Of a stretch of DNA of 64,000 nucleotides, positions 9,001-15,000 are shown in pieces. The position numbers were made by a program. This DNA is from Actinomycetota bacterium. GTDB taxonomy: Bacteria; Actinomycetota; UBA4738; HRBIN12. Within the stretch, counting starts at the first letter, position 1. The number at the start of each line of letters is the position of its first letter. Where the stretch lies: NCBI GenBank assembly GCA_040880745.1, contig JBBDHX010000042.1:4362-68361 (forward strand), read 5' to 3'.

Positions 9001-12000
9001 ATCGGATACAGGGTCACCTGGATGCCGAGATCACGGGCAACAGCATCTGGGAAGGCCTCCGCAACCTCGGTCTTCCCCGTTCCGACATCGCCGGCGAGCA
9101 CGACCAGAGGTGTCCTGCTCGTCACTTCGCCAACAGCGGGCAGCACTTCACCGTAGTGCTCCCGGCTCCATCCCTCGAGGACCGATGGGTCGAGGAGGAT
9201 CTTGGCCTCGCGGATCAGGCGGGTCTTCACCGCGTCGATCCCGATCAGCGCCTCCAAGCGACGCTGCGCGTCCGGATCGGGGTACTCGAGGACTTGGTCG
9301 AACAAGCCATCCACCGTCACCACGGCCGGAACACCTTCCGCTGTACCAGCATGCCACCCGCCGAGTAGCCCAACTCCGTCGTCCAGTACCCGTTCCCGTC
9401 CGGCGGCGCCGAGCCAGCGGTGCGCCGGAAGGGCAGGCTGGCCTCGATCGCTTCCCTCTGGGCACGGCTTAGCCGAGACCAGGCGGCGCTGTGGGTAAGG
9501 AAGTTGAAGTGCTCGGCGCCGCTGACATCGATGCCGCGCGTGAGGTTGCCGCTGCGGCCATCGCCGCTCAGGTCGCCCGCAGGGCCAACCGTGTAGGACC
9601 ACGTGAGCAGTCGGGTTCCGTTGCGTGTGAACCCGAACTCGTACGACTCTACGAAGCTGCCGGCAAGGAGGATCGTCAACTCCTCTTGATAGTCCGCGAG
9701 CGATGAAGGGTCCGGCCGATCGTAGAGGAGGGAACACTGGTACAGGTCCGCGACCACCTTCCCAGCCAAGTACTTCGCATGCGTGCGGGTGAACGTGTTG
9801 GTGTGCGTGGATGACATCACGACGCTCCGAACGACGACCCGAGGATGGACGTCCAGCAGTCAACAGCATGGGACTTGGCCGCCGCAAAGCGTGCCTCTCC
9901 GATTGCGCTGAGAGCGTCCTGCGCAGCATCGACGATCCGCACGCGATCGGCATCCGAGTAGCGGCTCGCCACGTTGTTCTCGGGGTTGACCGGATCGAGG
10001 ATCTCGATGGGAGCCGAACTGCTCGGGGGGAAATCGGCGGCGGCGACATAGTCCGAGAAAGCGACGCGGCCGGACAGTTCCGTCTTGACGATGTGGGTGA
10101 AGAACCGCTCGAGCCCCACGACGTAATCCGTCATATCGAGCCCCCCATCGGCGAGGTGTGCCCAGAGCAACTCGAGCATGAAGGACTTGAACCTGAACGT
10201 TGGGTCGGTAGCGAGCATCGTCCGCTTCCACCATTTCGAGATCCTGATCAACTGGGTGAAGTTGGCGCCGTACTCCTTGCGCCGGGAGCGGACGAAGTCG
10301 AGGTGCAGCGGGATACTGGTGAGGATTCTGTCACCGGTTCTTTTCCTCACGAGGTACCCGCGGTCGTCGGGGTCACCCTCGTACAGCACAGGTACGACAT
10401 CGACATTGAGACCCGTTCCTCGGAAGTTGACAGTCACGCAGTGCTCGCCCTCTTCGAACTGTTCTCGGTCCATCGAAGGGCTGGCCTCGGCGAGCCGGTC
10501 CGCGAGCCACGGCACGAGATCCGGATCCTTGGGGGGAGCGCTTGCAGACTCCACGTAGACGGCGACGTCTAGATCGTTGACGGTCCGAAGGGCCGTTCCT
10601 TTCGCGACGCTGCCAGCGTGCAGCATCTTCACGAGCCCGAAGTCCGGGTTGGTGGCGATCTTCGCCTCCAGGCGTGTGCGAAGCGCGTTCACCTGGTCCC
10701 GGTGGCGCTTCGCCTCGTCGGCTGGCAGGTTGACTCGGCCCTCGGCGAACACCTTAATCTGCTGATGTGTGACGTTCTGCTCCGCGAACACGTGACTACT
10801 TCTTCCCCTTGCCCTTCGCTGGCTTCTCGTTAACCGTCGTCTTCGGGCTCTTCTTGACGGTCGATTGCTTCACGTACCTGCCGGTGATGGCGCTGCGCCC
10901 GCGCTTGCCGCTCGTGCCGCCTTTGGTTGCCATGATCGTCCCCTTTCTCCTGGTCTCGAACGGCCTAGAGCTTTCAACTTACATCAGTGTAAGTCTCGGG
11001 TCCGACACGAAGAGGGCGTGCTCAGCGCCATGTTCCGTTCCTTCCGCTGTCCTGTGGGTGGGCGCCGCTAGGATGGCCGTGGCCCATGGAACTGTTCACT
11101 GTCGGATACGAAGGTCGAACGCTTCCCCAGTTCGTGCGGCTCCTGAAGGAGAACGAGATTGTGCGCCTGGTGGATGTGCGCGAACGTCCCGCGTCCAGGA
11201 AGCGCGGCTTCTCTGCCGTGCCCCTGTTCGACGCCATGCGGAAGGTCGGCATCACGTACGAGTCCGACAGGGCACTCGGGAACCCGATCGAGGTCCGAGA
11301 CCTGTGGAAGAACGGGAGCCTCGCCGAGGGGAAGGCGCGCTACCGCAGGATGATCCGGAACGGACGACGACCTCGCGTCGAGCTCCTGCTTGCGCATGCC
11401 AAGGTCGAGCGCGTATGCATCCTCTGTTTCGAGGGCGATCCGGACGTGTGCCACCGCGGCGTCATCGCGGAGGAAGCAGCTCGCCTTGAGCCGGATCTGG
11501 TGATCCACCACCTGTAGGTGGTCTCGGCGGCCAGAACACGCCGAGGATGAGGAACCCGTCGGGGTTCTTGAACTGGTTCCCCGTGAACAGAGCGGTGTAG
11601 CGATCCGGGGCCCACACCTGGTCGGTCCACTTCGTCCGGATTCGGTCGAGTGCGCCGGCCTCGCCGTACGCGTCGCGCCAACTCCTGAACGCCTCGGCGA
11701 TCTCCCAGTCCACGATGCTCTGCTCGTGCCCACGACAGCTCGGCTCGCCGGCGCACCCGTAGCGGTAGCTGAACCGGTAGGGGACCTTCTCCAGCCCCTT
11801 CTTCCCGGGCATCAGCATGCTCGGCTGATCGACGATCAGCTGCTTGTCCGGATCCCACGCGGACCGATCCTCCGTGATCACGAGCTCCGGCGGCGCCGCG
11901 AGTCTGAACACCCCCAGCGACGTACCGGTCGCCACCTGCTGCCGTCGGATCGCGCACATGCTGGGCTGCATCAAGGGATCGATGAGCCGGCGTCGATCGT

Positions 12001-15000
12001 CGGCCCGCCTCGGCGGGATGTTGTCGAGGACCGTGGTCGAGTCGACGTTCGGTTGGTAGCTCTCCGGCCGCGGATCGGACGCCTTCCGGGCGTCGACCTC
12101 GATGACGTCGAACTTCCGAAAGCGCCGATCGAACGGCATGTCTCTGAACGGGACGGGGAACAGCCGGATCCACCGAGGCTGCTCCATGTCGATCCCGGCC
12201 ACGCACACCGCCTCGCCGTGCTTCTTCCCGATCGCGGGGTAGGCCTTGACCGTGACGAGGATCTTCAGGGTCTCGTTCCTCACGGCACCGAGTATGGGCG
12301 ACGGCCGTGACGGCGAAGCCCACCGCGCGGTGCTGGTCTCGTCGTCCCCGGGCGGTTGGCCCCCGGGGACGACGATGGACATCAGCTGAGCACGTCGGCG
12401 GCGAGGTCGGCGAGGTAGGCGAACAGCTCGTCCGTGTCTTGCCCGTAGCCGCGCGCGACCTTGCCGACGTCGTGCACGGACTCGACGAGGGTCGGTGGCT
12501 CGTCGCCATCCACGGGATCGACGACGAACGGGAAGTCCTGCGCGAGACCGAAGTCGTTCGCCGGCATCTTGCTCATCGCGAAGATGGCTACCTTCTCGCC
12601 TCCGACGATGGGCGCCCAACAACCCTCCTCCCCATTCCTCATGGTGATGCTCAACAGGCCCCAGCTCTCGTCGCTGATATTGGCCTGGATGGTGGTGGTC
12701 CGGCGCCCCTCGCGCCGCACCTTGACCTTCATGCCTGCTTCTGGGCTGAACATGGTGTCCTCCTTGGAACACGTTGCCCGCCCGACGATCGGACGGCAAC
12801 TGACTGGCGGAGTGGTCTCTCGCACCTGGGGGAGCGGGGACGCGCGCCGCAGCTGGATCAACTGATGGCCTCGGGCCCAAGTAGTCAGGTTGCAGGCGTT
12901 AGCCCCACCACGAACGTTTGTAGCACCGAGAAGGAAGTCGAGTGCGGCGAACTCCAACTATTTCCAGGAGCGCCAGGGGGCCTCGACGGGGTCCCAGGTC
13001 TCTTGGTTCGCCGAGGGCGACGGATCGGGATGGGCACCGCTACCAAGGCCGAGGGCCAGGGCACATCATCGTCAGGCAAGCGTTAGACGAGGGCGAACCT
13101 ACGGCAGCCCACGCAGGATCATCGACCAAGGGCGTCTGCCACCTGATCGGCGATCTCAGCAGTAGGCACGTACATCGCACCGCCGTTCTCGGGAGCGCCG
13201 TAGTCGCGGATCCACGCGACCGCGCCGTCCACGTTCACCAAGACGAACGTATGACCGGGCTCTCCGCTTGGCATCGCCCATCGCATGACGCCGTACGCGG
13301 TCGCCACCCCGTTCCCGTCGTCCGTGAGCATGGGGGTGCTCACTCCGAGCGCCTTCCCCTCGGCCGTCCACGCGGACGCGGGATCCGGTGAGATGCTGAG
13401 CACCCCGACGTCGAGATCCTGGAAGGCTCTGTCCTCCTGCAGGTCGACCACCTGCTGCATGCAAGGCGTTCACCCGGGACCCATGCTGAAGTACAGGAGC
13501 ATCGGCCGCTCGCCCAGCTTCTCGGTGAGCGAGACGCTGCTGCCTCCGGCCTCGGGGAGCGTGAAGTCGGGCGCGTCGTCGCCCACCGACAACTCCTGGC
13601 TGGGCGTCGACGTCGCAGGAGCGCCGGTCGAGCACGACGTAACGAGCAGCGCCAGCCCACCGAGGAAGACGAGCGCTGTCCACGCCGGGCGGTTCCTCAA
13701 GACCACGCTCTCCTGGTAGAAGTACTACGTACAGTAGTGAGCCTACCGCGGGACGGCAAAGGAGAGGATCTTGGGAGCGTTCGCCCTTGCCCTGGTGGCG
13801 GGCGTGATCTCGTTCTCCTCGCCGTGCTGCCTTCCGTTGATGCCTGGCTACGTGTCATACGTCTCGGGCGTCGCGGGGGTGTCGGCGACAGCGACCGCCG
13901 TCCGACACAGGACCTTGGGGGCGGCAGCGCTGTTCGTCCTCGGGTTTGCGCTGGTCTTCACCGCGATGGGGGCGAGCGCGTCCGCCCTGGGCTCACAGAT
14001 CCTTCAGCACCGGATCGGCCTCACCCAGATCGCCGGCGTCGTCGTGCTCGCCTTCGGACTCACGATGCTCGGCGTGGTGCGTGCCCCGTTCCTCTACCGC
14101 GAGAGGCGGTTGGCGCTCCATCGGATCCAGCCTGGGCCGGCCGGCGCCCTCCCGCTGGGGGCAGCGTTCGCGGTCGGGTGGACCCCGTGCATCGGCCCGG
14201 TGCTCGCGGCGATCCTCGCCGTCGCCGCGTCCACGTCGACCCCGGCGCGGGGTGCGGCCCTTCTGTTCACGTACTCGCTGGGTCTGGGGATCCCGTTCCT
14301 CCTGCTCGCCGCCGGCGTGGCTCGCGGCGGTCGCTTCCTGGAGTGGCTCCGGCGACGCGCGAGGGCGATCGAGATCGTCGGAGGCTCGCTCCTGGTCGCG
14401 ATGGGCGTGCTGATGGTGACCGGCGCCTGGGTGTCGCTCTTCACGCCGATCCTCCGCCTGTTCTCCGAGACCGGGTGGCCTCCGCTATGACGGGCGCCGG
14501 AGCTACCCGCGGCCCTGACGCTCGGGCGGTGCGATCGGCGGCGCAGCGTCGCCGCCTGGCGCTCGTCCTCGTGATCACGGGGTCGGTGCTCGTCATCGAG
14601 GTGATTGGAGGCGTCGCCTCGGGAAGCCTCGCGCTGCTGGCCGATGCCGGGCACATGCTCACCGACGTCGCCGGGATCGGCTTGGCGCTCCTCGCGATGC
14701 GGTTCGCGCTGAGGCGGGCGGACGAGGAGCGCACCTTCGGCTACTACCGACTTGAGATCCTGGCCGCCGTGATCAACGGCGTACTCCTGTTCGGGATCGC
14801 CGCCTACGTCCTGATCGAGGCCGTTCGCCGGCTCAGCGATCCCCCAGAGATCCAGAGTGGGCTGATGCTCGCGGTGGCGCTCCTGGGCGCGGCCGCGAAC
14901 GCTGTCTCGCTCAAGATCCTCCACCCGGCGCAGGGGGAGAGCCTGAACGTGCGGGGGGCCTACCTCGAGGTCCTGGGTGACCTGCTGGGGTCTATCGCCG

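Follow-up and report, generated by a model that had tools for sequence, protein, structure and literature searches.

The 64,000-nucleotide stretch analyzed here (the window; positions 4,362 to 68,361 of contig JBBDHX010000042.1, from an Actinomycetota metagenome-assembled genome of 2.35 Mb in 52 contigs) has a G+C content of about 66% and contains two convergent genes that encode a DUF488 protein and a protein with two predicted OB folds (hereafter the OB protein) and that overlap at their 3' ends. We are highly confident that this locus is a DUF488 and double-OB pair of the PDC-M19 type. An anti-phage role is the leading hypothesis and probably applies, and for the overall view that the locus represents an autonomous, horizontally mobile two-gene PDC-M19-type module with a defence role based on end processing we see about even chances. 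The initial annotation of the window, made from its sequence, had proposed an undescribed defence or DNA-damage module in which a DUF488 gene converges on a coupled two-gene unit. Our analysis reduced the unit to DUF488 and the OB protein only, and a PADLOC run supplied the name PDC-M19 for what had been taken as undescribed. The accompanying remark that no characterized system could be named remains correct, since PDC-M19 is a candidate only.

The assignment to PDC-M19 is based on matches of each protein to the respective PADLOC models, PDLC04505 of PDC-M19A for the DUF488 protein (E 8.3e-25, residues 3-135) and PDLC04508 of PDC-M19B for the OB protein (E 9.5e-46, profile positions 4-262 of 269), and on the position of the two genes side by side. 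PDC-M19 corresponds to cassette CAS_00089, one of 145 'guilt-by-embedding' candidates that were derived from BREX, DISARM and restriction-modification (RM) loci (Payne et al., bioRxiv 10.1101/2024.01.29.577857). While the window contains the same two gene families next to each other, two of the A models carry an additional N-terminal part of 90-150 residues that the window's DUF488 protein does not have, and, set against the PDC-M19 cassette, the window pair is convergent with an overlap of 56 bp.

The DUF488 gene (positions 11086-11517, forward strand) encodes a protein of 143 aa that matches Pfam PF04343 with an E-value of 4.6e-20 (72.9 bits at a gathering cut-off of 22.2) and marginally passes PF22751, the 'active' subclade DUF488-N3a (29.2 bits at a cut-off of 27), with a match to profile positions 64-112 of 118 only. 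The DUF488 family includes YeaO of Escherichia coli. Twelve residues (G7, Y8, D30, R32, S37, Y58, G65, C114, E116, C122, H123 and R124) are invariant across 51 DUF488 partners of OB proteins, among them the C-x-E...CHR site (C114, E116, C122, H123, R124) by which the gene had originally been recognized, and because these catalytic-site and other residues are invariant, the DUF488 enzyme is probably active. In the AlphaFold2 (AF2) model, which has a predicted local distance difference test (pLDDT) score of 97.7, weak fold matches were obtained to DUSP18/19, KAP, a DUF442 phosphatase and RapZ-C at E-values of 0.02-0.3, as well as to tetrapyrrole methylases; a search of the Protein Data Bank (PDB) by sequence returned no relative. 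Burroughs and Aravind reportedly grouped the phosphatase, DUF442, tetrapyrrole methylase and RapZ-C families with DUF488 in a rhodanese-phosphatase superfamily in 2023. Following the literature, we consider DUF488 a predicted cysteine-dependent enzyme of this rhodanese-phosphatase type, whose members are described as metal-independent and as moving terminal phosphates of proteins or sugars onto a cysteine; for the sister family DUF4326, ribose phosphates are the predicted substrates (PMC9503650). A helix-turn-helix (HTH) of the XRE type precedes the DUF488 part in some partners, as in a Nocardioides (locus L042, 6810-7616) and a Frankia (locus L021, 6858-7556), detected with Pfam HTH_31 (E 2.8e-8) and, in L021, with phmmer, which suggests self-regulation or DNA targeting. 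The long DUF488 open reading frames (ORFs) of five other loci (L007, L046, L056, L067 and L032) gave no match to a further Pfam domain, and their reading frames have probably been extended too far.

The double-OB ('DuOB-like') gene occupies positions 11462-12283 on the reverse strand, with a GTG start codon at 12283 and a stop codon at 11462-11464, and very probably encodes a protein of 273 aa, in place of the 306 aa that the initial annotation had read from an ATG at 12382. With few exceptions, the 710 homologues have lengths of 255-285 aa and begin a few residues ahead of a conserved LVTVKAYP block, the gene caller's product for the contig is likewise 273 aa long, and in the nearest relative with genomic context (locus L084, OB protein 85% identical) the GTG start lies at the position of the window's GTG 12283. 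The 33 extra codons of the 306-aa ORF are unconserved, their DNA alignment with L084 contains frame-breaking indels of 1, 2, 16 and 11 nt, and they enclose a hairpin (see below); the homologue starts, the indels and the hairpin together indicate that the longer reading extends too far. Directly ahead of the GTG codon a short stretch (12284-12300, reverse strand; CATACTCGG) is identical, including the GTG, in the window and L084, with flanks that have diverged and carry indels. This stretch holds the hexamer CATACT (12296-12291), 7 nt upstream of the GTG; since the hexamer is conserved at this position and inspection of the sequence ahead of GTG 12283 revealed no Shine-Dalgarno sequence, CATACT may be the -10 element of a leaderless transcript. 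Leaderless mRNAs are known from actinobacteria. A scan of positions 10700-13200 for sigma-70 promoter and T-tract terminator consensus sequences gave no match, as expected for a high-GC actinobacterium.

The most conserved blocks of the OB family are TVKAYP, CVAG, RLFPVPFR, RPESY and HEQSIVDWE, the first four of which had already been singled out as motifs of the window's protein, and its invariant residues are K13, E24, C27, R40, K57, R72, R97, C110, C177, C183, H186, D192, W193 and E194. The AF2 model of the OB protein (pLDDT 91.9; predicted template modelling score 0.88) contains two OB folds in one chain, and tandem-OB proteins are its top structural matches, which bears out an earlier guess that an OB fold might be present. 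In a Foldseek search against the PDB the HIN-200 domains of p205, p204, p202 and IFI16 ranked first, followed by baculovirus LEF-3, RPA, CST, POT1 and the Oxytricha telomere end-binding protein (E-values 8e-5 to 2e-2), and LEF-3 was also matched among viral structure models; no relative was found in the PDB by sequence. Like the OB protein as predicted, the HIN-200 proteins (AIM2, IFI16, p202/p204) and the RPA/LEF-3 proteins possess two consecutive OB folds, the former being innate-immune DNA sensors and the latter types binding single-stranded DNA (ssDNA). In contrast to these proteins, with which it shares no detectable sequence relationship, the OB protein has its own Cys/His cluster and an H-x-Q-S-I-[IV]-D-W-E motif, so that, judged from the model, its relation to them is a resemblance of fold and not membership. 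A beta-hairpin of the modelled structure contains C177-x5-C183-x2-H186, which resembles a zinc knuckle.

A second PADLOC candidate, PDC-M45, likewise combines an OB-fold protein (with C[IV]AG and WIR motifs) with DUF488 enzymes, and a system of DuOB with DUF488 and DUF488-N3a is said to have been described computationally by Burroughs and Aravind in 2023. A canonical Pfam DuOB locus of this PDC-M45 kind (L089, G280:C121:1828-5472) contains a gene for an ImmA/IrrE peptidase-HTH regulator ahead of genes for a DuOB protein of 231 aa, a DUF488 protein of 216 aa and a DUF488-N3a protein of 143 aa. In PDC-M45 three genes for DuOB and two DUF488 paralogues are co-directional, whereas the window has a single DUF488 gene and a longer OB protein. 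The OB protein had no match to the PDC-M45A models of PADLOC and reached only 17.7 bits with Pfam DuOB (PF22557; cut-off 27), matching positions 11-67 of the 210-position model only. Among its relatives, 7 of 26 matched Pfam DuOB at E <0.01 and none better than 5e-4, and an hhalign comparison of the OB family with the canonical DuOB profile gave a probability of 32% (E 5e-4). By sequence, these comparisons leave the OB protein as a distant relation of Pfam DuOB, and the window pair is a sister of PDC-M45.

To characterize the pair beyond the window, a pattern scan with one genome per species yielded 291 loci, of which 80 were kept for counts. DUF488 is directly adjacent to the OB gene in 76 of these 80 loci, and two others have it at a distance of up to 4.2 kb (78/80), in agreement with the earlier remark that this family recurs beside DUF488 genes. 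The loci span more than 10 phyla, including Actinomycetota, Chloroflexota, Planctomycetota, Verrucomicrobiota, Omnitrophota and Nitrospirota, the family is frequent in soil Actinomycetota, and the OB partner family by itself comprises 3,127 clusters at 50% identity (E <=1e-3). Clustering of all ORFs of the 80 loci revealed no third conserved gene. The distance matrices of the OB and DUF488 proteins are correlated (r = 0.80 overall and 0.83 within the convergent clade; Mantel test 0/999), and mean divergence is equal for both proteins (42-43% identity). Because of the strict pairing, the correlated distances and the equal divergence, the sequence comparison indicates that DUF488 and the OB protein are inherited and evolve as one unit.

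This unit is also mobile. The OB gene was found on 21 plasmids, of which 10 are conjugative, and in seven records of Gordonia CZ1 temperate phages. On the 395-kb conjugative plasmid of Pseudomonas sp. CIP-10 (L094, 7440-8738) the pair adjoins a gene annotated as HEPN/Toprim-associated and transposases. The window's genome contains one copy, while only fragments were present in 2 of 36 genomes of the same genus and nothing in 24 genomes that represent other families within the order. The fragments are of the OB gene (G023:C199:5162-5492, i.e., L086/L088, and G018:C354:1685-1858, i.e., L087). In one of the two genomes there are two pieces whose frames differ, and gene decay or faulty assembly may account for the fragments.

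In the phage Nymphadora, gp43, annotated as 'hypothetical', is an OB protein (hhalign E 6e-70) whose gene has its start right at the stop of the gene for the immunity repressor, gp44. Its neighbour gp42 (L092, 5822-6274), annotated as 'HipA toxin, toxin-antitoxin system?', belongs to DUF488 (hhalign E 1e-46). Gene 43 converges on gene 42 with a 10-bp overlap, and the pair sits between integrase and Cro. The same arrangement with gene 42 is present in BatStarr, TimTam, Eviarto and Herod. Genes in such a repressor-adjacent slot are expressed from the prophage, and CarolAnn 43/44, located beside the repressor gene 45, are proven defence genes, in a study in which Nymphadora served as a challenge phage only (PMC6426606). 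CarolAnn 43/44 and mycobacteriophage Sbash 30/31 (PMC6426606) occupy the same kind of slot as the Gordonia CZ1 pair but consist of a membrane protein and a partner that are unrelated to Nymphadora gp42/gp43.

Similar to the pairing itself, the tail-to-tail arrangement is conserved. The dual-coding overlap in the window measures 56 bp with the stop codons counted (11462-11517), as had been noted from the start, and places the C-terminal helix of DUF488 (VIAEEAARLEPDLVIHHL) antisense to the disordered tail of the OB protein (GGSPDPAQGELLPPR; pLDDT <=50 in the AF2 model). The last DUF488 helix in this overlap reads VIAEEAARLEP, and in the window's subclade the end of the OB tail, ELLPP[RQ], is conserved; by analogy this tail may be a functional docking peptide like the C-terminal tails of SSB-type proteins, or a mere by-product of the overlap. 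The two genes are convergent in 57 of the 80 loci, mostly with an overlap of 4 or 24 bp, co-directional with DUF488 first in 20, and co-directional with the OB gene first in one. A tree of the OB proteins contains two well-supported clades (98/98), one of 17 rows from non-actinobacterial phyla, all co-directional, and one of 61 rows from Actinomycetota, Chloroflexota and Dormibacterota, which is convergent with two reversions, the window being placed in a starred 14-row clade together with Thermoleophilia, Gaiellaceae and Chloroflexota. Orientation changed three times on this tree, compared to 18.7 times in shuffles. An overlap of exactly 56 bp is also present in L084, L095 and L096, although identity to the window's OB protein is 85%, 49% and 48%, respectively. 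Mobile copies show convergent overlaps as well, with 4 bp on a Streptomyces plasmid, 44 bp on the Pseudomonas conjugative plasmid and 10 bp in the Gordonia phages. Since 57 of 80 loci are convergent and the 56-bp version recurs exactly in three further loci, the overlap in the window is not due to chance, and the convergent layout is the stable state of one clade and an old conserved trait.

From the observed strict pairing, co-divergence, folds, conserved residues, mobility and carriage in phage lysogeny modules we infer a defence function and a mechanism in which nucleic-acid ends are processed; the mechanism, for which we see a little less than an even chance, includes the substrate, the chemistry, the role of zinc and the anti-phage phenotype. 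The double-OB protein would be the nucleic-acid-recognition subunit that binds ssDNA, DNA ends or replication intermediates when a phage or plasmid invades, with the invariant Cys/His cluster (C27, C110, C177, C183 and H186) probably holding zinc and thereby bracing the OB fold. It would then recruit or activate the DUF488 enzyme, whose site C114-x-E116...C122-H123-R124 would take a phosphate or sugar-phosphate group off the terminus of the nucleic acid or transfer it, leaving an altered end that could no longer be replicated, ligated or packaged. In the convergent layout each gene has its own promoter, and the transcripts may interfere with one another. A bolder version, which we consider doubtful, would make the pair an autonomous immune or exclusion system with a chemistry new to prokaryotic defence, in which a zinc-braced, HIN-like sensor of ssDNA or genome ends acts together with a terminus-modifying enzyme, the overlap of up to 56 dual-coding bases serves as an antisense governor of the protein ratio, and temperate phages co-express the pair with their repressor to exclude rivals.

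Several observations weigh against a role in defence by end processing. Foldseek searches with the DUF488 model gave nothing significant (best E 0.015), and the template modelling (TM) scores of the structural matches of the OB protein are low (0.2-0.4). The invariant charged residues E24, D192, E194, K13, R40 and R72 exceed the needs of a passive binder, and the OB protein may itself be an enzyme. PDC-M19 is a prediction only, no paper that mentions it was found, and literature searches on DuOB, DUF488, PDC-M19, PDC-M45 and YeaO found nothing functional. Moreover, the neighbours of the pair are mostly unrelated housekeeping genes with few PADLOC matches; the nearest ones fall into 99 Pfam families among 141 ORFs at 77 loci, the commonest being phage integrase (n=5), and no clear enrichment of defence islands was seen in this survey, which used crude ORF picking and top families only. 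The guilt-by-association argument that had suggested an anti-phage or DNA-modification-sensing system thus draws weak support from the island in the window, given the heterogeneous neighbours and few PADLOC matches at related loci.

The main rival to a nucleic-acid-end-processing defence is a toxin-antitoxin or abortive infection system, for example one in which the OB protein is toxic as an OB-fold nuclease or replication blocker, DUF488 is an enzymatic or stoichiometric antidote, the overlap sets the ratio of the two, and defence is achieved by killing the infected cell. The small, mobile and self-contained two-gene format would be in line with such a system, as would the long-stable convergent overlap, which suits antisense control, the many invariant acidic and basic residues of the OB protein, the XRE-type HTH on DUF488 of L042 and L021, which resembles that of many antitoxins, and the annotators' guess of a 'toxin' for Nymphadora gp42. 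However, searches of Pfam, NCBIfam and PADLOC placed neither protein in an established toxin or antitoxin family, clade I simply has both genes in one direction with DUF488 leading, and the Nymphadora OB gene abuts the immunity repressor gene in the same orientation, a risky position for a toxin. We regard this explanation as unlikely.

An accessory function in DNA repair, in which the OB protein would find damaged ssDNA or blocked ends and DUF488 would clean these ends (e.g., of a 3'-phosphate or a sugar fragment) for the cell's own repair, follows a domain logic identical to that of the proposed defence mechanism and would fit the many copies among housekeeping genes and the frequency of the family in soil Actinomycetota. 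In contrast, the very patchy distribution even within one genus and the carriage on plasmids and in phage lysogeny modules argue against it, and the clustering of the 80 loci showed no linkage of the pair to any repair gene. Since a LexA-box search found no such box near the locus, the sequence gives no indication of control by DNA damage or of SOS regulation, and the DNA-damage link of the initial annotation could not be upheld. Taking these points together, we consider a repair function distinctly unlikely. Alternatively, the pair might process RNA ends or a nucleotide-derived signal, given that OB folds also bind RNA and that DUF488 is related to the RNA-binding C-terminal domain of RapZ. 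RapZ-C appears among the weak fold matches of DUF488, and the superfamily is said to have ties to RNA termini and to derivatives of ADP-ribose. The OB protein, however, has DNA binders as its best structural matches, and no link to RtcB-type RNA-repair genes or to signal-producing genes emerged from the 80-locus clustering, which makes an RNA-directed function quite improbable.

The remaining proposal, a three-gene system, depends on the 123-aa gene (12382-12753, reverse strand), whose TGA stop codon overlaps the in-frame ATG of the 306-aa ORF as TGATG (12384-12380). The letters were read correctly and the gene is real, as its product has 18 homologues only, with 56-86% identity, that mark it as conserved; the protein had no match in NCBIfam or PADLOC and a weak Pfam match to 4HBT_3 only (E 0.12), far below the cut-off. 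The translational coupling that had been claimed did not stand. Directly 3' of the stop codon of the 123-aa gene lies a GC-rich hairpin (12339-12375, reverse strand) with a perfect 14-bp stem (12339-12352 / 12362-12375), whose RNA folding energy of -41.2 kcal/mol (z -5.9) was reached by none of 200 shuffles. This hairpin is kept in L084 despite the frame-breaking indels, and comparable GC-rich hairpins follow the 123-aa gene in L084, L081 and L083, where the next genes are the OB gene, AbiEi and a convergent gene, respectively. Because the hairpin accompanies the 123-aa gene whatever follows, it is likely the terminator of that gene, located inside a spurious N-terminal extension of the '306-aa' ORF. 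With the hairpin assigned to the 123-aa gene and the start of the OB gene placed at GTG 12283, the sequence evidence marks the TGATG 'coupling' as an artefact of ORF extension and the 123-aa gene as no part of the system. Accordingly, although the TGATG is present, the frame is open from ATG 12382 and L084 also has a 123-aa gene upstream of its OB gene, a three-gene system is barely tenable in view of the L084 gap of 122 nt between that gene, with its TAA stop codon, and the OB start, the indels that break the frame, the conserved terminator hairpin that separates the genes and accompanies the 123-aa gene in unrelated surroundings too, and the absence of this gene from all 80 loci carrying the pair. 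The 123-aa gene also occurs without the pair, beside AbiEi/AbiEii in L081 and in another island in L083. The unit of gene and hairpin (window 12339-12753, reverse strand; L081 5001-5445; L083 5001-5450; L084 3091-3540) moves together in variable regions of related actinobacteria, in two cases downstream of an AAA ATPase gene.

The DUF488/OB pair lies at the edge of an RM and CBASS island, as originally described. The island includes type I RM genes (123-5989), IS110 (6141-7479) and a complete type III cyclic-oligonucleotide-based anti-phage signalling system (CBASS; 7622..10791, reverse strand) with CD-NTase, HORMA, TRIP13 and NucC, identified with PADLOC (Cyclase 1.6e-117, HORMA 1.8e-49, TRIP13 5.8e-112, NucC 6.3e-78) and NCBIfam (CBASS_cyclase_a, E 9.9e-113). 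This CBASS is complete without the pair and represents a separate system, and neither ORF clustering nor scans of neighbours at related loci revealed a recurrence of the CD-NTase, HORMA or NucC families around the pair. Beyond the 123-aa gene envelope redox genes begin. An imperfect inverted repeat of 19 nt (10887-10905 / 11013-11031; 84% complementary) connects a 45-codon gene that precedes the CBASS operon with the upstream region of DUF488.

In summary, the kind of system found in the window was already catalogued as PDC-M19, and our analysis adds to it a corrected gene model, with an OB protein of 273 aa that has its own start, the exclusion of the 123-aa gene and no third gene, as well as the clade-wide stability of the convergent overlap, including its 56-bp dual-coding version. 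Likewise new is the repressor-adjacent pair in the Gordonia CZ1 phages Nymphadora and BatStarr, which provides a ready experimental system, as a large tested phage panel exists for the host G. terrae 3612. The DUF488 domain is very widespread, and if the pair defends, an enzyme with a phosphatase fold would be connected with chemistry at nucleic-acid ends in immunity, and two large orphan families would gain a function.

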